Sequence record: MW512573.1
Source: Clostridioides phage phiCD418
DNA length: 53,311 nucleotides
Direction: 5' to 3' (one strand)
The translations under genes were made by a program, and so were the position numbers. The notes under the pieces were generated by a model that searched no databases, was not told the DNA's origin, and saw only the letters and a program-made list of their open reading frames with translations. Below are positions 31,056 through 53,311 of this stretch, one piece after another (the stretch's first letter is position 1; every line of letters starts with the position of its first letter).

Positions 31056-31481
31056 CCCCTTTTTAAGTTATAATTCAATTATATTTTAAAAATGTTAATA
31101 CTTCAAATATAAATATTTTTGTTTAAGTATAAAACATCAATAACATTACTCAACACACCTTAAAATCGATTTAAATAAGTCTTTTTAATAACATAAATTA
31201 TATGATATTTATATAAGTCTTAGTCCCTATAGCTTTGCGTCACTAAATTTCTCTAGTTTTGCCGATTTAGTTTTATTCTACAACTAAAATAATACACTAG
31301 AATTAGTTATTATTCAACAAGATTGTTTGAAAATTGAATAAATTTATAGATATGAAAGTTATTTTTCTTCTAAGAAAAAAACTAAAACAGTAAAATATAT
31401 GGTAAAACTTACCTCTAGTTTTTGTGTTAAAAAGCTCCTATTATTAATTTAAGTTAGACGAATTTAAGGAAGTGACATAAA

Positions 31482-32656: not shown

Positions 32657-33871
32657 TTATTGTAAAATGCCCTCCAAAATATCTATTGTTTCACTTTCCA
32701 TTTTACTTGTAACATGTGAATATGTGTCCATAGTGGTTGATAATTGACTATGACCTAATCTTTGTTGTATATATTTTACATTAGCTCCATTTTCTAATAA
32801 TAATGTGGCATGTGTATGTCGCAAGCAATGAAAATTAAAGTTAATATTTAGTTTCTTGTTAATAGTTCTTATAGCAGCGTCAATATTGTTGTGATTTACA
32901 AATGAGCCATCTTTTTTTCTACAAACCCAATCATACTCAGTTTCTTTATACCATTTTCCAATTTTAATTTTTTGTTTTTTTTGATTCAATTTTTCCTCTT
33001 TTAATATCCTAGACAAAGTATCACCTATTTTAATATCTCTTATTGATGTTTTTGTCTTAGGTGATGCTAATTCAAATTCTGAAACTTTTCTCTTTATTAA
33101 ATTTTTTCTAACTTTGATTATATTATTATCTAAATCAACATTATCCCAACAAAGACCTAATATTTCTCCTTTTCTCATGCCTGTATGAAACCCTATAAGT
33201 AGAGGAATATAGATATTTGTATTTTTAGGATATATTTCTAGTATTTTATTGAACTCATCTAGTGTTATAGTCTTGTTATCTGACTCATTTTTTACCTTTA
33301 AAACATTTTTTGGTATACTGGCATATTGAACAGGATTTTCCTTAATGAGTTTGTAAGGGTAAACAGCAGATTTTAAAGCAGCATTTAATACAACATAAAT
33401 CGCTTTTAAAACTCCTTTTGTGTAGTGTTTTTCTTCTCCGTTTTGTGTGTATGTCTCTTTTGATTTATTATTTAAAAATTCTTGAATAATAGCTGGATTT
33501 ATAGATTTTAGCTTACATTTACCAAGTCTAGGTTCTATATGATTTTCAATTAAATTTCTATAACTTTCCTGAGTATTGTATTTGCAATTAAGAAGTACAT
33601 ACTCTTTGTACCAAAAGTTAAGATAGTCTGATAAACTCATATTTGTTTCATCAAACACTATACCAGCATTTTCATATTCATTTATTGCATCACGGAGCGA
33701 TTTTTCAGCTTCTTTCTTAGTGTTTCCACCAACTCTTTCTACCTTTTTTCTCTTGCCATCTACTATACCTGCATCAAAGTAGTAATACCACTTCTTTCCA
33801 CGTTTTCTTACGCCGCCTTTCATAAAATCTCTCCTCTCAAAAGCTTTTTTTATGTAATTATATAATAACAT
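32657..33871 (-). CDS. int: Tyrosine integrase (phage integrase family)
   Basis: 404 aa. C-terminal catalytic motifs HCLRHTHATLLLENGANVKYIQQRLGHSQLSTTMDTYSHV (R...H-x-x-R...Y). Confidence 0.9.
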   Translation of the reverse strand: MLLYNYIKKAFERRDFMKGGVRKRGKKWYYYFDAGIVDGKRKKVERVGGNTKKEAEKSLRDAINEYENAGIVFDETNMSLSDYLNFWYKEYVLLNCKYNTQESYRNLIENHIEPRLGKCKLKSINPAIIQEFLNNKSKETYTQNGEEKHYTKGVLKAIYVVLNAALKSAVYPYKLIKENPVQYASIPKNVLKVKNESDNKTITLDEFNKILEIYPKNTNIYIPLLIGFHTGMRKGEILGLCWDNVDLDNNIIKVRKNLIKRKVSEFELASPKTKTSIRDIKIGDTLSRILKEEKLNQKKQKIKIGKWYKETEYDWVCRKKDGSFVNHNNIDAAIRTINKKLNINFNFHCLRHTHATLLLENGANVKYIQQRLGHSQLSTTMDTYSHVTSKMESETIDILEGILQ

Positions 33872-34904: not shown

Positions 34905-35309
34905 CTATTTTTTATTTTTTTCGTCTAGTAAAAATAATTCTGCAACTTTTAATGCTTTTTCTCTTGCGTCTGGGCTTAGCTCGCTAAATATATTAAAAAC
35001 TTCTTTCATATCTTCGTCAAGATACATATTCTCAATAAGCTCCTTTTCTGTTTTAAAATTTTCAGCATCATAATCTTTTTCGTTTTTATTTATAAATAAG
35101 CTATTTCTAACATCAGTTCTTCCTAATAAATAATCTGTAGACACATCAAAATAGTTTGCATATTCTTCTATTGTACTTTTCTTAGGTTCTCTTAAACCAT
35201 TTTCTATCCTTGATAGTGTAGATTTGTTTATATGTAAATCCTCGCTTAATTTGTCTAGCGAGATGCCTTTTTCTTCTCTCAATTCTTTTATCCTATTCAA
35301 TTTGCACAA
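34905..35309 (-). CDS. CI-like repressor (XRE HTH)
   Basis: 134 aa. ISLDKLSEDLHINKSTLSRIENGLREP HTH. Divergent from the cro-like gene across an operator-rich 170-bp region. Confidence 0.7.
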   Translation of the reverse strand: MCKLNRIKELREEKGISLDKLSEDLHINKSTLSRIENGLREPKKSTIEEYANYFDVSTDYLLGRTDVRNSLFINKNEKDYDAENFKTEKELIENMYLDEDMKEVFNIFSELSPDAREKALKVAELFLLDEKNKK

Positions 35310-35478: not shown

Positions 35479-35712
35479 ATGTACTTAAATAGATTAGAAG
35501 GATTGATGAAGGAAAATAGACACACCCAAAAAAATGTGGCAGATATATTAGGTCTTAGCTCATATGGTTTTAGATTAAAATTAAAAGGAAAAAACGAATT
35601 TAAAGCAAGTGAAATAAAAAAGATATCTAAATTATATAATGTATCTGCGGATTATTTTTTTTCAGATGAAGTTGCTAAAATAGCAATAAAAGAAGAAAGG
35701 GGCAATAAATAA
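35479..35712 (+). CDS. Cro-like regulator (XRE HTH)
   Basis: 77 aa. TQKNVADILGLSSYGFRLKLKG HTH. Divergent from the cI-like gene. Confidence 0.6.
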   Translation: MYLNRLEGLMKENRHTQKNVADILGLSSYGFRLKLKGKNEFKASEIKKISKLYNVSADYFFSDEVAKIAIKEERGNK

Positions 35713-36464
35713 TGAAGAATCTAACCATAATCAAGCAAAATAATCAATTTTTAGTTGAAAGTAGAGAAGTAGCAGAATTAATAGAAAAGAAGCACGATAA
35801 TTTATTAAGAGATATAAGAGGATACAAGAAGATTTTAGAGGACTCATCAAATTTGAAGAGTCAAGATTTCTTCATAGAAAGTACTTATATAAATACTCAA
35901 AATAAAATTCAACCTTGCTACTTATTAACTAAAAAAGGTTGTGACATGGTAGCTAATAAAATGACAGGTGAAAAGGGAATTATATTTACAGCGATTTATG
36001 TAACTAAGTTTGAAGAAATGGAGCGAGAGTTAAAAGAACAACAACCTAAATTACCAACTACATATAAAGAAGCACTGCAACAGTTATTAATCGAAGTTGA
36101 AGAAAAAGAGCAATTACAATTAGAAAATCAAGTAATGAAACCAAAAGCAGATTACTTTGATGCTCTAGTAGAAAGAAACTTGCTAACTAATATAAGAGAT
36201 ACAGCAAAAGAACTTGGAGTCAAAGAAAAAACATTTGTTTTATGGTTAATAGAGAAGAAATATTGTTACAGAGATTTAAAAGGCAAAATAAAACCTTACT
36301 CTAACAAGATGCAGTATTTTGAACTGAAAGAATTTACAACACCATACGGACATTCAGATACTCAAACATTAATAAATCCAAAAGGAAGAGAAGCATTTAG
36401 ATTATTACTTATAAAGGATGGACTGGTAAAAGAAAAAGAATATCAAATAACTTTATTAGGCTAA
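35712..36464 (+). CDS. Phage regulatory protein Rha / antirepressor (KilAC-type C-terminus)
   Basis: N-terminal IIKQNNQFLVESREVAELIEKKHDNLLRDIRGY matches the Rha/ORF6N family start. ATGA-coupled to cro. Confidence 0.55.
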   Translation: MKNLTIIKQNNQFLVESREVAELIEKKHDNLLRDIRGYKKILEDSSNLKSQDFFIESTYINTQNKIQPCYLLTKKGCDMVANKMTGEKGIIFTAIYVTKFEEMERELKEQQPKLPTTYKEALQQLLIEVEEKEQLQLENQVMKPKADYFDALVERNLLTNIRDTAKELGVKEKTFVLWLIEKKYCYRDLKGKIKPYSNKMQYFELKEFTTPYGHSDTQTLINPKGREAFRLLLIKDGLVKEKEYQITLLG

Positions 36465-45585: not shown

Positions 45586-46590
45586 ATGATAATACACAAA
45601 TTTATAATACATGTTTTAGATAAGAATAGCGATACACCAATACTAAATGACTTTGAGGGTAGAGTCAGTCAAGATATTGAAGCTTTCTTTCAAAAGAAGA
45701 TAAGCAAAGTATCAAGAGATAATGACATCAGAACAGCAGTATTTAATGACTATAGTAACAATCTAATTAAGAAGTGTTGTGAACAAATTATTTATGATGA
45801 AAGTTCATTTTTAAATAACTCTAAAGAGATTGCAGCTTACTTATTTGATGTTATGAAGCTTAATGCTACATTAGAATCTTGTGACTTAGCAATTTGCTTA
45901 TACTCTCAAAAAGATGAAAAGAAAGTTGCTATATTAAAACTTGATTACAACAAGTCATATACTCATTCAATCGAGTTTAAAGATGATAAATTTAATATAC
46001 AGATGTCAGCTAATGAAGTTAATATACAAGAAACTAAAACGGTCAAAGTTGCTGCTTTGGTTGGATTAAGTGGAATGAATGATGAATACCATCTTAGGGT
46101 TTTAGACAAGGATGCAGAAAAGGAAGAAGCTAATTCTAAGTTTGTTACAGAGTTTTTAAATGCTACTAAAGTGAAAGATGACAAGTACAAGACTAAGAAG
46201 TTCAAAAATACAGCTGAGAATTGGATAACTAATGCTCTTAGTAATGATATAAAACAAGCAGAGGATGTAAGAAGTATATTAAATTATACTTTGATAGAAA
46301 AGCATGAAATTGATATAAATGATTTTGTTGATAAAACAATTAAAGATGATAAGTTAAAAGATAGTTTTAAAGAACATATGGAAGAAAAAGGTCTTGATGA
46401 AGGATTTAGTATAGATAAAAAATGGGTTGAGAAAAAGCTTAAAAAGAGAAATATAAAAACTGACAATGGCTTTGATATAAAAGGTAATCTGACTGATTTT
46501 GAGGACCCAATGAAATATACAGTAAGACAAAATCAAAATGGGTCTATAGATATAATTATTAAGAATGTAACCTTTTATGAGGAAAAGTAG
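45586..46590 (+). CDS. Hypothetical protein (weak nucleoid-associated-protein-like N-terminus)
   Basis: 334 aa. N-terminus MIIHKFIIHVLDKNSD is reminiscent of NdpA/NA37-type starts. Not verified. Confidence 0.35.
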   Translation: MIIHKFIIHVLDKNSDTPILNDFEGRVSQDIEAFFQKKISKVSRDNDIRTAVFNDYSNNLIKKCCEQIIYDESSFLNNSKEIAAYLFDVMKLNATLESCDLAICLYSQKDEKKVAILKLDYNKSYTHSIEFKDDKFNIQMSANEVNIQETKTVKVAALVGLSGMNDEYHLRVLDKDAEKEEANSKFVTEFLNATKVKDDKYKTKKFKNTAENWITNALSNDIKQAEDVRSILNYTLIEKHEIDINDFVDKTIKDDKLKDSFKEHMEEKGLDEGFSIDKKWVEKKLKKRNIKTDNGFDIKGNLTDFEDPMKYTVRQNQNGSIDIIIKNVTFYEEK

Positions 46591-47362: not shown

Positions 47363-47527
47363 ATAGGTGAGTTAAAAGGAAGTGATTCTTTGAAAAGGAT
47401 AAGATGCAGTTGGTGTGGGAAATTATTTTATATTGATGAAAAATCTAAGGGTGTTTATTGTTGTAAGGAATGTAGGAAAAAGGCTAAGAAGGCGAAGAAC
47501 TTTAATGAATAAGGAATACCATTTAAA

Positions 47528-47573
47528 ATAAAATAATTAGAAGGTAAAAAAATATATTTAGCCAATTATATTT
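47528..47573. terminator. Bidirectional rho-independent terminator (TAGAAGGTAAAAAA / TTTTTTACCTTCTA)
   Basis: 14-bp perfect inverted repeat with A-run and T-run arms. Lies between + strand genes and the minus-strand membrane genes. Confidence 0.55.
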
Positions 47574-47596
47574 TTTACCTTCTAAAAATAAAAAAC

Positions 47597-47971
47597 TTAA
47601 CTATTAAGATATTTGTGAGGTTTGTGTATCCAAAATAATAATATTGTTGCAAATAGAGGGCTAAACCAAAATGCTAGTAAAGTGTAAAGACTAGTATTTA
47701 AGGCATTTTTAGTCGCAACTCTATTACAAGCGATTAGTAGTATTATGGACAAAATATGAGCAATAATTTCTAATATATTTGAATTAAAGTCTTGAAAAAA
47801 GACTAAAAAAGAAAAAATATAAGAGATGCTCATACATATAAAAAAACAATAATTCAGTATTTTAAATTTTAATAGTTGTTTTTTATTATCGTTGATTGCC
47901 ATAAGTATTCCTAAAATTATAGACAGAATGATAAATGTATTTGATGCTTGTAAATAAGAAAGGATAGTCAT
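47597..47971 (-). CDS. Small integral membrane protein (about 4 TM)
   Basis: 124 aa, hydrophobic helices throughout. Minus strand, opposite to the surrounding genes. Confidence 0.5.
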   Translation of the reverse strand: MTILSYLQASNTFIILSIILGILMAINDNKKQLLKFKILNYCFFICMSISYIFSFLVFFQDFNSNILEIIAHILSIILLIACNRVATKNALNTSLYTLLAFWFSPLFATILLFWIHKPHKYLNS

Positions 47972-47989
47972 AAAATTATTCTCCTAATA

Positions 47990-48193
47990 TTAACTATAAA
48001 TTGTAAAAAAATAATATAAACAACTAATAACTGAATAACCAATAAAAAATGTAAATAAATAAAAAAGAAACTTTTTAAATCCATTTAATTTAAATCTTTT
48101 TTCTAACTTTTGACAAATGAAATTTATCGGAATAAAAACAAAAATCGCAATTAAAAAAGTTATTAAATACTTTGACACAGGGTAATAGTCCAT
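47990..48193 (-). CDS. Small membrane protein (2 TM)
   Basis: 67 aa. Minus-strand RBS gaggtga upstream of the ATG at 48193. The overlapping alternative-frame ORF 48090-48317 is judged less likely. Confidence 0.45.
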   Translation of the reverse strand: MDYYPVSKYLITFLIAIFVFIPINFICQKLEKRFKLNGFKKFLFYLFTFFIGYSVISCLYYFFTIYS

Positions 48194-48394
48194 GAATAAT
48201 CACCTCATAAATTAGTATAACCATAGAGTAATATGAGCTGTTAATAATAGCAACCAATTTTGTAGAACTGTAAATAAATTGAAATAAATTATTCAAAAGA
48301 AAAAGGAGTGCTTTCACACTCCACTTGTCAAAAATATAAAACTTTTATATACAAATATTATTATAACATAAAAAATTGATGGGAGTGTGGAAGT

Positions 48395-48877
48395 ATGAAT
48401 AAAAAGACACTATTTCAAGAGGTTGAAGGTAGATTATATAACTACAAAAAACTAGAAAGTCAAATAAGAATAAAAGATATATATATTAAAAAATTAGAAA
48501 ATGAATTTTGCGGATGTAAGGCTCAAAGTTATGAAGAAAAAACTGGAGAAACTTATAATATAAGTTCAATTGTTGAAAATGAAGTTATTAAGAGAGAAGA
48601 AGATTTAAATAGATTAAAAGAAGATAAGAAAACATTAGAAATTGAAAAAGAAACTATAGAATGTGCATTAACAAGTCTAAATAGCTTTGAAACAGAGTTT
48701 TTCAATGAAATGTATATGAACAATGAGAAAATCAACATGGATTATATGTCTAATGCTATGCACATAGATAGAAGTCATTGCTTTAGAATAAGAAAAAGGA
48801 TAGTTTGTAAAATTATGGATATGTTATATCCAAAAATAAAAGAGTTTGAATTACCTATTTTTTCATGGAAAGCTTAA
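48395..48877 (+). CDS. ArpU-like phage transcriptional regulator (putative late-gene activator)
   Basis: 160 aa. N-terminal LFQEVEGRLYNYKKLESQIRIKD resembles the ArpU/sigma-like family that usually sits upstream of packaging genes in Firmicute phages. Confidence 0.45.
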   Translation: MNKKTLFQEVEGRLYNYKKLESQIRIKDIYIKKLENEFCGCKAQSYEEKTGETYNISSIVENEVIKREEDLNRLKEDKKTLEIEKETIECALTSLNSFETEFFNEMYMNNEKINMDYMSNAMHIDRSHCFRIRKRIVCKIMDMLYPKIKEFELPIFSWKA

Positions 48878-48880
48878 AAA

Positions 48881-48943
48881 TGAGACTATTTTGAGACTTT
48901 TTGGAGACTATCTTGAGACTTTTTATTGGCAAAGACATGAGAT
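48881..48943 (+). repeat. Helically phased GAGACT direct repeats (x4, plus a GAGATA variant)
   Basis: GAGACT at 48881, 48892, 48904 and 48914 (spacings 11, 12, 10). GAGATA at 48938. Immediately downstream of the ArpU-like gene. Confidence 0.35.
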
Positions 48944-49121
48944 AATAATATTGTGGAAATAAAGATTTCCCTCTCAAAATTAAATAATTGGCTAGAGTTA
49001 AGGGGTTATTTTTGCTCTAGCCAAAGTGAATAATTTTTATAATTAAGGATATTATATAAGCAATTAAAAAATTTTAAATGACGCTTTAAATATAAAAAAT
49101 ACACATATTTGACTTTTAATA

Positions 49122-49150
49122 TTGACACTTTAGCACAAAAAGCCTACAAT
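49122..49150 (+). promoter_or_regulatory. Near-consensus promoter TTGACA-17-TACAAT
   Basis: -35 at 49122-49127, 17-nt spacer, -10 at 49145-49150. 35 nt upstream of the 49186 ORF. Confidence 0.5.
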
Positions 49151-49185
49151 AAATATATAAAAATATGCAGGAGGTGTATGCCTGA

Positions 49186-49941
49186 GTGTCAAATAAAATA
49201 AAATTAGAAGTTCCTAATGAAATAAGTTACGTCATTGTTCAATGCTTTAGTAAGGCAAGAGAAGAAATTAGAGAATATACAGGAAAACAAAACTTTATAA
49301 CTAAAAATGGAATACCTTTTCAGTTCTGGGATTTGTTAAATAATGCAATTGATACCGCATTTAATAGTTCTAATTTTAAAGCGTATAAATCTAAACGTGG
49401 ACGTTGGAGAATGATTTTTATATATGATAAAAATAGCAAGTATCTTTATGTATTAATGAGAGAGCAAAGATATAAAGAACTTCATAACAATATCAATAAA
49501 AGAGAAAAAATGCATTATGTAGATATTTTAACTAAAGCATTTAATAGAGATTTAAAAGCTCCTATTGAACAACTATCATTTTTTTCAATAGAATTTGATA
49601 ATGAAGACAAAGTTGAAATATATTTACAGAAATTAATTGATAGTATAAATAAAGATGGTGCTATCATTGAACACCATGTATTATTATTATTTAATCAAAC
49701 AGCTGAATATGAACTGACATCTATTCGTGCTGTGATGGTTGACACAAATTTAAATATTGTATCAGAACAAAATTTGAGTTCTTATATATCTATAGAAGAA
49801 AGTACAGTTGTAGAAAAAGTTGATAAGACTAATCCTGCTGCAAATAATCCTACTCTTGGATTGAAATTAACTGCAAAAGCAGATGCAAGAAAGAAAACAC
49901 ATCCTTTAAAAAAGGCGAAAAAGGAGGAAGATGCCAAGTAG
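49186..49941 (+). CDS. Uncharacterised 251-aa protein with Lys-rich C-terminal tail
   Basis: GTG start (uncertain). No family recognised by eye. Low-complexity tail KADARKKTHPLKKAKKEEDAK. First gene of a two-gene operon with its own promoter. Confidence 0.45.
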   Translation: MSNKIKLEVPNEISYVIVQCFSKAREEIREYTGKQNFITKNGIPFQFWDLLNNAIDTAFNSSNFKAYKSKRGRWRMIFIYDKNSKYLYVLMREQRYKELHNNINKREKMHYVDILTKAFNRDLKAPIEQLSFFSIEFDNEDKVEIYLQKLIDSINKDGAIIEHHVLLLFNQTAEYELTSIRAVMVDTNLNIVSEQNLSSYISIEESTVVEKVDKTNPAANNPTLGLKLTAKADARKKTHPLKKAKKEEDAK

Positions 49942-49974
49942 TCACTTTTTAGTGAATAGATGGAGGAAATAATT

Positions 49975-51123
49975 ATGGAAATTAATTTTAATGGAGAGCG
50001 TTTAAAGAAAGCTCGTATATATAGAGGAATGACAGTAGCTGAATTAGCTGAGAGAATTGACTGTCAAAGACAGACTGTTTCGATGTATGAGAATAATAAA
50101 TCGAAACCAAATGATAATAATGTAGTGAAACGAATAGCAAGAGTGTTAGGTTTTCCAGTTAAGTTCTTTTTAGAAACAGGAACTAATATTGCAGTAGGTT
50201 CAACATATTTCAGGGCATTATTGACTACAAATAAAAAATATAGAGCGGAGCAAATTCAAAAAATGGAATTTCTAGCTGAAATATATTTCTTCTTACAAGA
50301 TTATATTGAATTCCCAACATTAGATTTACCAGATTGTTCTGGAAAAACACCAGAAGAAGCTGCTTTACTTTTAAGAGAAGCTTGGGGATTAGGATTAAAA
50401 CCTATTGATAATATCATATATGAAGTAGAACAACATGGAATACTTGTAACAAGCTTTTCGACTTCTACAGATGATATAGATGCATTTAGTCAGATGATAG
50501 ATATTTCAGGAGAAACTGTCTATCTTATTGGATATTCTAGTAATAAGACTTCTGCTTCTAGAATTCATTTTGATATAGCTCATGAATTAGGGCATATATG
50601 CTTACATGAATGGAGTGAGGATGTAGAAGCTTTAGAAAAGCAAGAGTTTAAAGATAGAGAATCAGAAGCTAATCGCTTCGCGTCTACATTCTTATTGCCA
50701 GAAGAAACATTTAAACTTGATGCCAAGAGAACCCCTTTACGTATTCCAAGTTATACAGAATTAAAGCGTAAATGGAAAGTTTCTATTCAAGCAATGATTC
50801 GTCGTTCATATTCTTTGGGAATCATCAGTATGGATGAATATCAGTCTATGATTCGTACTTTACAACGTAGGGGACTAAGAAAATCAGAACCATTAGATGA
50901 TGAATTATTAACTTCTCTACCAGCATTGTTAAAAACAGCAGTTTTGATGTTATTAAATGAGAAGGTATTTACTCCAAAAGAGTTTATGGATGAACTTTCA
51001 TTTTCCTATAACTTTAGTCTAGAGCCAGAAGAAGTAGAATATCTATTAAGTTTACCTAAAAATACTCTAACTTCTGCTAAAGTTATACCATTTCCTGATT
51101 TACAACTTAAAAAAGATGTTTAA
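49975..51123 (+). CDS. Fused HTH-XRE / ImmA-IrrE family (M78) metallopeptidase
   Basis: N-terminal LKKARIYRGMTVAELAERIDCQRQTVSMYENNKSKP HTH. HEXXH zinc motif AHELGHICLHEW in the central domain. About 150-aa C-terminal extension. ATG at 49975 after RBS ggagga. Confidence 0.7.
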   Translation: MEINFNGERLKKARIYRGMTVAELAERIDCQRQTVSMYENNKSKPNDNNVVKRIARVLGFPVKFFLETGTNIAVGSTYFRALLTTNKKYRAEQIQKMEFLAEIYFFLQDYIEFPTLDLPDCSGKTPEEAALLLREAWGLGLKPIDNIIYEVEQHGILVTSFSTSTDDIDAFSQMIDISGETVYLIGYSSNKTSASRIHFDIAHELGHICLHEWSEDVEALEKQEFKDRESEANRFASTFLLPEETFKLDAKRTPLRIPSYTELKRKWKVSIQAMIRRSYSLGIISMDEYQSMIRTLQRRGLRKSEPLDDELLTSLPALLKTAVLMLLNEKVFTPKEFMDELSFSYNFSLEPEEVEYLLSLPKNTLTSAKVIPFPDLQLKKDV

Positions 51124-51138
51124 ATCATATTTTAAATA

Positions 51139-51161
51139 GAGCGAGGACTTATGACCTCGCT
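51139..51161 (+). terminator. Hairpin terminator-like element (GAGCGAGG-ACTTATGA-CCTCGCT)
   Basis: 7-8 bp GC-rich stem directly after the peptidase gene stop. Weak U-tract. Confidence 0.4.
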
Positions 51162-51191
51162 TAAATTATATAGAATAGGGGGAAATATGAA

Positions 51192-51323
51192 ATGGGAATA
51201 TTAGAAGGTGCAACTAAAATAAGAGAGATAGCCAAAAAGATTGCTATAGAAAAAGGAATAACAGAGCAAGAGGCATGGAATGATGCTATTAAAGAGTACA
51301 AGGAAAAATATGAATTTAATTAA
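51192..51323 (+). CDS. Small hypothetical protein (43 aa)
   Basis: MGILEGATKIREIAKKIAIEKGITEQEAWNDAIKEYKEKYEFN. RBS gggggaaat. Followed by a strong terminator. Confidence 0.25.
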   Translation: MGILEGATKIREIAKKIAIEKGITEQEAWNDAIKEYKEKYEFN

Positions 51324-51348
51324 GACCAATGTATGGTCTTTTTTTTAT
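51322..51348 (+). terminator. Rho-independent terminator (AAGACCA-ATGTA-TGGTCTT + T8)
   Basis: Perfect 7-bp stem and 8-nt T-run. Confidence 0.6.
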
Positions 51349-51489
51349 TACTATGAACAGACTAGGTAGGGCGTGAGGACGCTGTTAGTTCAATTCTAAC
51401 TATGTTCAAAATCTATTGATACACTATATTAAGTATTTGAATTGAGATTAAAATCTCATACAATTTTGTATCTTAATTCAGAAGTCTAA

Positions 51490-51570
51490 AAATCGGGTGG
51501 GGCTTGGTAACCTCACTCACCATGCAAGGACTGGTTTTTAATCTAGGTTCGATTCCTAGAACTTGCGACA
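51490..51570 (+). other. tRNA-like fragment: canonical T-arm CTAGG-TTCGATT-CCTAG plus acceptor-like 3' strand, no anticodon arm
   Basis: The GGTTCGATTCC 11-mer at 51546-51556 is a hallmark T-loop. A 5-bp GCAAG/CTTGC pairing forms a minihelix with it. No cloverleaf could be built. Confidence 0.3.
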
Positions 51571-51593
51571 TAATATGTATCTCCCCTTTGAAA

Positions 51594-51630
51594 AAGGCTA
51601 AGTTTACCCTAAACTTAGCCTTTTAATTTT
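51594..51630. terminator. Strong bidirectional terminator (12-bp perfect stem AAGGCTAAGTTT/AAACTTAGCCTT)
   Basis: Loop ACCCT. A-run upstream and T-run downstream. Confidence 0.6.
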
Positions 51631-51882
51631 TAAAAAGAAAAAAGAAATTTTTATTGTCATAATACTATTTGTTTAGGTATATTATAATGTGCATATTGTA
51701 ATATTAAATACTTAGTAATTGTTTGAGTGAATATATAGAGAATAGGTGACATAAGTTTTTATAATATGAGTTATTTAAATTAATACAAATAACAGTGATT
51801 TTATTATATAAAATGTACATATTGTGAATAATAATAATAAAATCATGTACAAAATGCCAACTGATAATTCCTCAAAATGTAT

Positions 51883-51910
51883 TGCATATTTGACGTGACG
51901 TCAGTATAAT
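51883..51910 (+). promoter_or_regulatory. Promoter TTGCAT-16-TATAAT with TTGACGTGACGTCA operator in the spacer
   Basis: -35 at 51883-51888 and -10 at 51905-51910. The spacer carries TTGACGT/TGACGTCA, the same palindromic core as the operator sites at 37880-37992. Confidence 0.45.
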
Positions 51911-51943
51911 TAAATTATAATAGTGAAGTGGAAGGTGGTACTT

Positions 51944-52117
51944 ATGGCTACAAAAAGTATTTTAAAAAATGTAGATGTAAGAAAAAAGGCGTTTGGAAGG
52001 AATCTAGTATCAGCTCTAGAAAATGCTAAAAATAAACAAGAAAAAGAAGTTGTATTAAGTAAAAAATGTTCAGAAGTACCAAAAGATAAAATAAAGGATA
52101 TATTCAGGAGATTTTAA
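51944..52117 (+). CDS. Small protein, candidate antitoxin partner of the GNAT toxin
   Basis: ATG at 51944 after RBS ggaaggtgg. 57 aa. Stop overlaps the toxin start (TAATG). No clear RHH/DUF1778 signature. Confidence 0.35.
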   Translation: MATKSILKNVDVRKKAFGRNLVSALENAKNKQEKEVVLSKKCSEVPKDKIKDIFRRF

Positions 52118-52728
52118 TGAGTGGCTATTTAATTGTAAACTTAAGTAATATGCTAGGAGAGCTGGAGGAAGAAGAAGTTAAAAAAATTCTCTCCAGTTTT
52201 TCTTGTCCCCTTAATAAAGATGTAGAAGAATTTTTAAAAAACAAAGCTATTGAATTTTCTAAACAGGGTTTGGCTAGTACACATTTAGTGCTAACTTCTT
52301 ATAAAGGCAAGCCTGTTATAGTTGGATATTTCACTCTAGCTAATAAGTATTTTACAATAAAAAGAAAAACATTATCAAACTCTTTAGCTAGGAAAATAGT
52401 GAAGTTTGGACAATACAATGAAGAACTAAGAAGATATATTATTGGAGCACCTTTGATAGGGCAAATAGGAAAGAATTATTCAAATAATTATAATAAATTA
52501 ATCAAGGGTGATGAACTTCTAAAAATTGCATGTGACAAGATAAAAGCAGTACAGTTAGATATGGGTGGGAAAATAGTGTACCTTGAATGTGAAGATAAAC
52601 CTAAATTAATTGAATTTTATAAGGATAATGGATTTGTAGACTTTGGAAAAAGAAGCCTTGATAAAGACGAAACAGATTCGTTAGATGGGGATTATTTAGT
52701 TCAAATGTTGAAATATCTAAAAAAATAA
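52117..52728 (+). CDS. GNAT-family acetyltransferase toxin (AtaT/TacT-like)
   Basis: N-terminal FSCPLNKDVEEFL matches the AtaT/TacT F-x-C-G...FL motif. PVIVGYFTLANKYF matches QVLGYYTL. C-terminal KLIEFYKDNGF matches the GNAT FYxxxGF motif. GQIGK...IKGDELLKIA is the acetyl-CoA loop region. Confidence 0.6.
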   Translation: MSGYLIVNLSNMLGELEEEEVKKILSSFSCPLNKDVEEFLKNKAIEFSKQGLASTHLVLTSYKGKPVIVGYFTLANKYFTIKRKTLSNSLARKIVKFGQYNEELRRYIIGAPLIGQIGKNYSNNYNKLIKGDELLKIACDKIKAVQLDMGGKIVYLECEDKPKLIEFYKDNGFVDFGKRSLDKDETDSLDGDYLVQMLKYLKK

Positions 52729-52805
52729 AAGTACATAAAATCTAAAATGACTATCTTGATAGATGGTCTTTTTTTATACAATAAATTAAGAAGGAGAATA
52801 AGATT

Positions 52806-53207
52806 ATGAAAGTATTTTTAGGGGGAACTTGTAATGAAAGTACCTGGAGAGATGAATTAATTAATTTGCTAGAAATTGATTACTATAATCCAGTTGTACC
52901 GAATTGGACAGAAGAATGTATGAAAAAGGAAAGGGAGCAAAGAGAAACTTGTGACTATTGTTTATATACGATAACACCACTTATGACTGGAGTATATTCG
53001 ATTGCAGAAGCAGTAGAAGATTCTATAAAAAGACCCCACAAGACTATTTTTTGTTTATATGACTCTATTAAAGACAAAAAAAGATTTACTGCATCAGAAC
53101 TAAAATCTTTAAATCAAGTTGGTAAGATGATTGAGAGAAATGGTGGAAAATATTTTGCTAATTTACTTGATGTGGCACTTTATTTAAATAAAAAAGGAGA
53201 ACAGTAG
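52806..53207 (+). CDS. DUF4406-like protein (nucleoside 2-deoxyribosyltransferase-like fold)
   Basis: MKVFLGGTC...YYNPVVPNW...DYCLYTITPLMTGVYSIAEAVEDSIKRPHKTIFCL parallels the DUF4406 pattern MKIYI(S/A)G...NP...CDAVYMLPDW..S.GA..E...A...G.PV. RBS aaggagaa. Confidence 0.45.
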   Translation: MKVFLGGTCNESTWRDELINLLEIDYYNPVVPNWTEECMKKEREQRETCDYCLYTITPLMTGVYSIAEAVEDSIKRPHKTIFCLYDSIKDKKRFTASELKSLNQVGKMIERNGGKYFANLLDVALYLNKKGEQ

Positions 53208-53311
53208 CATGGAGAAAAAAGAAATTGAGGAACTGAGTAAAAACTGTGAACCAATACTAGAATAAACGACTAATCTTTACTCCCAAAACAAACAAATAAA
53301 GAGGTGGTGAT

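Follow-up and report, generated by a model that had tools for sequence, protein, structure and literature searches.

Which function might a phage derive from two genes, transcribed together from a promoter of their own, that sit at 49122–51162 of the Clostridioides phage phiCD418 (MW512573.1)? The window, by which we mean the whole stretch of DNA analysed, is a complete C. difficile myovirus-type phage genome of 53,311 nt, and the phage is a temperate C. difficile myovirus. An earlier note, made from the letters alone, had read the two genes as a self-contained cargo unit of the immunity, exclusion or abortive-infection type, consisting of a 251-amino-acid (aa) protein that it could assign to no family and an XRE helix-turn-helix (HTH) fused to an ImmA/IrrE (M78) peptidase, and it had put them forward as its best candidate for an undescribed system. 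Our comparisons bear out a cargo unit of the toxin–antitoxin (TA), exclusion or abortive-infection type, but not its novelty: as judged from sequence and profile matches, the pair, here rmrT–rmrA, is a member of the known RosmerTA system, with a toxin family, DUF5986, that has not been studied so far. Each of the two proteins is covered from end to end by a PADLOC model for RosmerTA, the system was described in 2022, and the pair itself has been in GenBank since phiCD27. The system being catalogued, PADLOC or DefenseFinder would flag the pair, and for the genome scan the chief outcome is negative. We consider it probable that 49122–51162 is a RosmerTA-family TA module, carried as a moron in the slot between the late regulator and the terminase, that protects the lysogen by autoregulated TA/abortive infection. 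The module comprises the following features:

49122–49150, plus strand: promoter TTGACA-17-TACAAT, SigA/sigma-70 type
49170–49176, plus strand: ribosome-binding site (RBS) GGAGGTG of rmrT, which precedes the start codon in most homologous loci
49186–49941, plus strand: rmrT, GTG start, 251 aa
49798–49938: Lys/Arg-rich disordered tail of RmrT (residues 205–251), behind a globular core of about residues 1–200
49962–49966: RBS GGAGG of rmrA
49975–51123, plus strand: rmrA, most likely with an ATG start, 382 aa
50002–50160: HTH_3 (XRE) domain of RmrA, residues 10–62
50428–50805: Peptidase_M78 (ImmA-IrrE) domain of RmrA, residues 152–277
50581–50595: AHELGH motif of RmrA, with H203, E204 and H207
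51139–51162, plus strand: GC-rich hairpin at the module end

The two genes are adjacent on one strand with a gap of 33 nt and a single upstream promoter, and thus form one operon. A mechanical list of open reading frames (ORFs) extended rmrA to 49960; the ATG at 49975 is most likely the true start.

RmrA matches the PADLOC RmrA model PDLC03944 over profile positions 3–382 of 384 (2.6e-164) as well as 13 more RmrA models, and the CapP and CapH models of PADLOC are only distant matches. Against the verified RmrA of Escherichia coli OLC-716, for which we used the sequences in the supplement of the 2022 paper (Millman et al.), it is 34% identical over 309 aa (BLASTP, E 1e-50). The fusion of an XRE HTH to a HEXXH-type M78 peptidase, as proposed in the earlier note, is confirmed by the two Pfam domains; HEXXH and E229/E231 are invariant or nearly so, and the peptidase retains its catalytic residues. 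The extension behind the peptidase, put at roughly 150 aa in that note, comes to about 105 aa past Pfam M78, all helical, and in the structural model (predicted local distance difference test, pLDDT, 88.3; predicted template modelling score, pTM, 0.87) the C-terminal region (243–357) is predicted to be helical and not GAF-like. The linker GSTYFRALLTTNKKYR is invariant, is predicted to form a strand (residues 72–79) and is kept in E. coli RmrA, which marks it as a candidate site of cleavage or pseudo-substrate.

RmrT, supposed to have no family, is Pfam DUF5986 (6.5e-78) and phrog_26280 (1.9e-137), and it matches the PADLOC RmrT model PDLC03930 over profile positions 1–245 of 247 (9.7e-79). None of its matches is to a structural or replication family that has been well characterised. 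In the AlphaFold 2 model (pLDDT 79.9, pTM 0.72; the tail below 57), two long N-terminal helices are followed by two three-stranded meanders with intervening helices, a fold for which comparison with solved structures gave no match, and RmrT lacks a hydrophobic stretch of membrane-spanning length. Residues invariant in the family are found in the core (R71, G72, W74, R92, E93, R95, H110, Y111, N120, Q129, H164 and R181) and in the tail (P222, L226, K231, A232 and R235), where they form the motif P222-x3-L-x-L-T-x-K-A-x2-R. Two more specific proposals for RmrT found no support. Similarity of its N-terminal half to RelE/ParE (YoeB) was unsupported by sequence, profile or structure comparison; and a clamp-binding motif QLxLxL in the tail is fitted by 'TLGLKL' in the window sequence alone, the family-invariant residues lying in another register. 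NCBIfam gave no informative match for 41 members of the DUF5986 family.

Experiments on other Rosmer systems provide the background for a function. RosmerTA was named and described in 2022 as a system that defends against phages and in which a deletion of rmrA could not be transformed (Millman et al. 2022). The ImmA-type antitoxin is a hub that is paired with many unrelated toxins, and the Rosmer pair of Gordonia phage Kita protects E. coli (Ernits et al. 2023). In the pneumococcal pair RipAB (Spr1630/Spr1629), an HTH-ImmA antitoxin neutralises a toxin whose target is the DnaN clamp; neutralisation depends on ClpX, and the toxin drives competence. The literature searched yielded no report of Rosmer in C. 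difficile phages.

The pair of phiCD418 shares with the E. coli OLC-716 system the two-gene operon with the toxin first, an XRE HTH-M78 antitoxin of about 370–380 aa with the linker motif (Y/S)FRA and HELGH in common, and matches of both pairs to the PADLOC Rosmer models; the E. coli system, however, lies on a Gram-negative chromosome and its defence has been shown there, whereas ours is a putative defence system of a Clostridioides prophage. With Kita it has in common that the pair is phage-encoded with an ImmA-type antitoxin, and Kita shows that temperate phages carry Rosmer as cargo able to exclude other phages. The toxins differ: Kita RmrT (D5) depolarises the membrane, in which a segment at its C-terminus lies, whereas RmrT of the window has no hydrophobic segment and ends in a basic disordered tail. 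RipAB is alike in antitoxin architecture, in its cytoplasmic toxin and in having the toxin gene first. It differs in that RipA targets DnaN, needs ClpX and has its role in competence induction, and RmrA scores below the cutoff of the NCBIfam 'spr1629 family repressor/antitoxin' (205 bits against a family cutoff of 335; 1.9e-60), which places it in another RmrA subfamily. A genome scan for DUF5986 loci returned none from Streptococcus.

More distant are CapH/CapP of CBASS, ImmR/ImmA of ICEBs1 and DdrO/IrrE of Deinococcus, in which the HTH and the peptidase are separate proteins that control a neighbouring downstream operon, whereas in the window they are fused in one protein of 382 aa and the partner gene lies upstream in the same transcription unit; the C-terminal region of RmrA, being helical and not GAF-like, also sets it apart from this group. 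No separate repressor gene lies beside rmrA, which speaks against a pair of the ImmR/ImmA type. Finally, the type II TA systems of the COG2856/XRE kind similarly combine a Zn-peptidase/HTH antitoxin with interchangeable toxins, e.g. the PIN-like DUF4411, but in the wider family the order of the two genes varies, with the toxin first in 58%, whereas it is fixed in the subfamily of the window, and the toxin here is DUF5986 and no PIN nuclease.

The DUF5986 family and its promoter

A DUF5986 profile search returned 470 cluster representatives, nearly all of them single-domain proteins of about 250 aa. We collected 46 loci, from phiCD27, metagenome contigs and 39 GTDB genomes, which span Oscillospiraceae, Lachnospiraceae, Christensenellales and Negativicutes, with a few metagenome-assembled genomes labelled Coriobacteriaceae, Bacillus or Staphylococcaceae. 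An RmrA homologue lies 27–146 nt 3' of rmrT in 45 of the 46 loci, the exception being a contig end, and the order rmrT then rmrA is fixed across loci. RmrA is 58–82% identical to the window protein and RmrT 32–49%. Chromosomal homologues adjoin a gene with a Shedu SduA_C domain, a HaeIII restriction-modification system, resolvases and relaxases; among the 72,556 PLSDB plasmid records, there was no DUF5986 homologue. RmrT of identical sequence is present on 529 contigs.

The promoter proposed in the earlier note has stood. TTGACA-17-TACAAT matches the consensus at 11 of 12 positions and is one of two such sites in 47500–53311, but a scan of the single sequence is not significant alone (40 promoter-like sites against 36.3 expected). 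We nevertheless regard the promoter as genuine because it is conserved in the family: upstream of the rmrT homologues, a perfect TTGACA, a 17-nt spacer and TA(T/C)AAT are found in 42 of 42 distinct loci. The distance from the promoter end to the start codon is mostly 28–29 nt (range 22–35), with 45–102 nt in four loci. The family consensus is tCTTGACAtttt-N6-AAAcGCCTAtAAT (TTGACAtttt-N6-AAAcGCCTAtAAT), the flanks being unconserved. Each locus has the extended pattern just once, always 5' of rmrT, and the window holds a single exact copy.

Conservation exceeds what polymerase needs. AAAcGCC precedes the -10 hexamer, the conserved spacer end reading AAAAGCC in the window promoter, and GTCA follows 3–9 nt past the -10 hexamer in 28 of 42 loci, forming an inverted repeat with the -35 hexamer such that TTGACAT...ATGTCA brackets the promoter. 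The window clade has instead a TGwC element 8 nt 5' of the -35 hexamer (TTTGAC, 49108–49113), which occurs at the same position in the closest relatives (L001, L011, L012 and L017). We infer that these extra bases, in the window the stretch TTGACA...AAAAGCCTACAAT of the promoter region, are a candidate operator for the HTH of RmrA, itself highly conserved, a mode of control that would amount to autorepression.

The cassette and its slot among C. difficile phages

The features that surround the module are:

48395–48877: late regulator, RinA/ArpU-like, 160 aa (phrog_36, 1e-30; TIGR01636, 2.4e-06)
48988–49024, plus strand: hairpin TTGGCTAGAG-N17-CTCTAGCCAA, a perfect 10-bp inverted repeat at the left junction, outside the module
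49025–49121, plus strand: AT-rich left part of the cassette, missing in phiC2, phiCD119 and phiMMP03 and 90–95% identical in L056
51192–51323, plus strand: 43-aa ORF, phrog_17098
51322–51348, plus strand: canonical intrinsic terminator (7-bp stem, then T8), the next canonical one, after the 43-aa ORF; right junction relative to phiC2-type phages, with homology resuming at 51350

Among 50,697 phage records, the sole nucleotide-level match to the cassette is phiCD27, where gp71–gp72 (96.1% identical DNA) are the same pair and gp72 is annotated as a transcriptional regulator. Homology with phiC2, phiCD119 and phiMMP03 ends at about 49007 and resumes at 51350, with about 10 nt between the equivalent points there; phiC2 has its own variant of the hairpin at the equivalent of 48988–49024, followed directly by sequence matching the window from 51350 onward. 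From this alignment, the pair is an inserted moron of about 2.1 kb behind the late-regulator gene, missing in sibling C. difficile phages, in keeping with the idea of a cargo unit with its own promoter. The placement between the late regulator and terS, also claimed in the earlier note, needs adjusting: the pair does lie between the regulator and the packaging genes, but four small cargo genes intervene, and terS occupies 1–765 at the opposite end of the window.

The module proper is on these comparisons about 49025–51170, and the 43-aa ORF a separate small insert, because a second C. difficile Rosmer prophage (L056/L057) lacks this ORF and its homology ends at about 51170, right past the hairpin at 51139–51162. 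This hairpin is stable (-17 kcal/mol, z -3.5), with none of 200 shuffles equally so. The 43-aa ORF lies within the insertion relative to phiC2 and occurs elsewhere in L051; as a third component of the system it was rejected, being missing 3' of rmrA in all loci but phiCD27, and missing in L056. No tRNA or Rfam element was found in or beside the cassette.

Two kinds of variation were seen among C. difficile prophages. The first is seen in L056/L057, whose RmrA shares 98% identity with that of the window and whose promoter region shares 90–95%, while the RmrT core (residues 1–200) is only 50% identical. Synonymous divergence (dS) is 0.72 for the core, 0.13 for the tail and 0.14 for rmrA, and because of this difference the toxin core must have been swapped for a divergent allele by recombination, with the tail and the antitoxin kept together. 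The swapped region corresponds to 49134–49790 of the window, with breakpoints right past the promoter and near residue 200. The ratio of nonsynonymous to synonymous divergence (dN/dS) is about 0.4 for rmrT and 0.06–0.09 for paired rmrA.

The other kind is loss or absence of the toxin gene. RmrA proteins of four more clusters (P0270, P0288, P0296 and P0299), of 370–380 aa and 79–86% identical to that of the window, are encoded in C. difficile prophages that carry rmrA only. These loci (L051–L055 and L058–L063) occupy the same slot, equivalent to 49025–49982 of the window, directly past the left-junction hairpin, and their homology with the window extends to 49024. They have a GGAG RBS but neither rmrT nor the Rosmer promoter; HEXXH is kept, the HTH matches Pfam weakly, and dN/dS among them is 0.14–0.27, indicating purifying selection. 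They could be orphan antitoxins with an anti-addiction or counter-defence role, or repurposed regulators.

In sibling prophages, the same slot holds KwaA (L061, 3885–4469), a NACHT/nSTAND3/SNaCT5 protein (L051, 7281–9143) and a DUF4868 protein (phiCD119 gp77; L003, 7038–7982), DUF4868 being what we take to be a KwaB-type domain. In C. difficile phages, the slot from late regulator to terminase behaves like a hotspot for defence genes, and in an unrelated C. tetani phage a DUF5986–regulator pair lies right 5' of terS.

Function of the module

Altogether, these comparisons point to a model, its steps drawn from experiments on other Rosmer systems, in which rmrT–rmrA would be transcribed from the prophage by the SigA polymerase of the host. 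RmrA would bind the conserved promoter-proximal bases via its HTH and repress its own operon, and would also hold RmrT harmless. RmrT would be a soluble cytoplasmic protein with a conserved surface rich in Arg, His, Tyr and Glu and a basic disordered tail. Were RmrA then disturbed by superinfection with a phage or by another stress, whether through self- or trans-cleavage at the linker between HTH and peptidase, through titration or through lost synthesis, the freed RmrT would arrest the cell and so abort the infection, with the side effect that loss of the prophage would be penalised. In this sense we infer a signal-gated mechanism.

The context is in keeping with defence because the slot is shared with KwaA, DUF4868 and NACHT/nSTAND genes in sibling prophages and because chromosomal homologues have Shedu and restriction-modification neighbours. 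As to what the toxin might act on, our best guess, which we offer tentatively, is an intracellular target (nucleic acid, or replication/translation) rather than the membrane. It is tempting to speculate further, on a proposal that we ourselves hold to be a long shot, that DUF5986 is a new fold whose fast-evolving, swappable core serves as the effector and perhaps as the infection sensor, that the conserved basic tail motif, co-inherited with RmrA, is held or cleaved by the RmrA peptidase, and that the rmrA-only genes of prophages are counter-defence antitoxins; if so, rmrA-only phages could superinfect lysogens that carry Rosmer.

Several observations weigh against a protective RosmerTA module as we describe it. 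The verified RmrT of E. coli is unrelated to DUF5986 (hhalign probability 0.18%; PADLOC PDLC03935 vs PDLC03930), and because of this, and because the Kita toxin is a membrane protein, the toxicity of the window RmrT is an extrapolation from its co-occurrence with RmrA. The term 'DUF5986' is absent from the literature searched. Pneumococcal RipAB is an example of a Rosmer pair with a role in host physiology instead of defence. The window promoter, like that of its clade, does not have the downstream GTCA half-site found in 28 of 42 loci, and the operator proposal is weakest for the window locus. Finally, the hairpin that the earlier note took to close the operon has a genuine stem but no U-tract, and it was not called as a terminator; it is hence non-canonical, and we rejected it in that role.

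RipAB, with its DnaN-targeting toxin, its link to competence and its ClpX-dependent neutralisation, is also the precedent for the view that the pair acts mainly in prophage addiction and stabilisation, or as a switch of host physiology, with no meaningful anti-phage activity. A mobile element that carries such a cassette gains from post-segregational killing, and homologues do occur on other mobile elements with relaxase or resolvase genes. We nevertheless think this unlikely: the tested Rosmer systems, one of them phage-encoded, protect against phages, homologues adjoin the Shedu SduA_C-domain gene and a restriction-modification system, the slot holds other defence-type genes in sibling prophages, and addiction and defence are in any case mutually compatible roles.

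That the pair instead belongs to the phage's own regulatory circuit, with RmrA as an ImmA-like anti-repressor or late regulator and DUF5986 as a phage-development protein, is an idea favoured by its location directly past the RinA/ArpU-like activator gene, by the annotation of phiCD27 gp72 and by the retention of rmrA alone under purifying selection in sibling prophages; moreover, ImmA-type peptidases govern induction in ICEBs1 and many Gram-positive phages (Ernits et al. 2023). However, close relatives are viable without the pair, the pair and its promoter are also found on non-phage chromosomes across Clostridia and Negativicutes, and phiCD418 encodes a CI-like repressor, an antirepressor and an integrase of its own at other places in its genome, so that we consider such a role very improbable. 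Least probable of all, in our estimate, is a decaying or inactive remnant that is losing its toxin as in sibling prophages, where the rmrA genes of at least four clusters from C. difficile prophages have neither rmrT nor the promoter beside them. Both ORFs of the window are intact with every family-invariant residue present, the promoter is a perfect family match, paired rmrA evolves at the low dN/dS given above, and the identical RmrT recurs across those 529 contigs.

The pair has some practical value nonetheless, since both phage therapy against C. difficile and the biology of its prophages hinge on the set of exclusion systems that prophages bring to their lysogens. The DUF5986 subfamily also offers a clean entry point to the unsolved mechanism of Rosmer, having a conserved promoter with a candidate operator and a soluble toxin with an unassigned fold and a tail motif, and it includes naturally occurring forms with a swapped toxin core or with the toxin deleted and the antitoxin kept.

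Other features of the genome

The remaining genes to which the text has referred lie elsewhere in the window:

1–2107: small and large terminase genes, terS being 1–765
32657–33871, minus strand: integrase
34905–35309, minus strand: CI-like repressor
35712–36464: antirepressor

Near this lysogeny region, a c-di-GMP-I riboswitch aptamer lies at 31184–31273 on the minus strand (Rfam RF01051, 37.2 bits against a gathering threshold of 35). Directly 3' of the late-regulator gene, 48882–48924 holds four copies of GAGACT with 11-nt spacing, followed by the degenerate GACATGAGA, in a stretch about 69% conserved with phiC2-type phages; these repeats might be sites to which the late activator binds, or might have to do with packaging.

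Beyond the right junction, about 570 nt (51350–51920) have no ORF of at least 60 aa and are 83–92% conserved across many C. difficile phages, with a 15-bp terminator-like hairpin at 51592–51624 and no Rfam or tRNA match. There follow two genes, 51923–52117 (64 aa) and 52117–52728 (203 aa), that overlap by one base in a TA-like arrangement and are conserved as a pair in phiC2, phiCD119 and phiMMP01/03; neither protein has a Pfam or PADLOC match, and the 203-aa gene is an acetyltransferase by PHROGs (phrog_1758, 3e-63). At 52806–53207, a 133-aa ORF resembles nucleoside 2-deoxyribosyltransferases (PF15891, 4.3e-10) and is variable cargo before the packaging genes.

Upstream of the late regulator, two small hydrophobic ORFs on the minus strand (47597–47971, 124 aa, and 47990–48193, 67 aa) have no family match and run opposite to their neighbours, and a terminator-like hairpin lies at 48322–48305, also on the minus strand. 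Further upstream, 45586–46590 is the gene for an NA37-family nucleoid-associated protein (334 aa; PF04245, 8.2e-64) that is common to several C. difficile phages.

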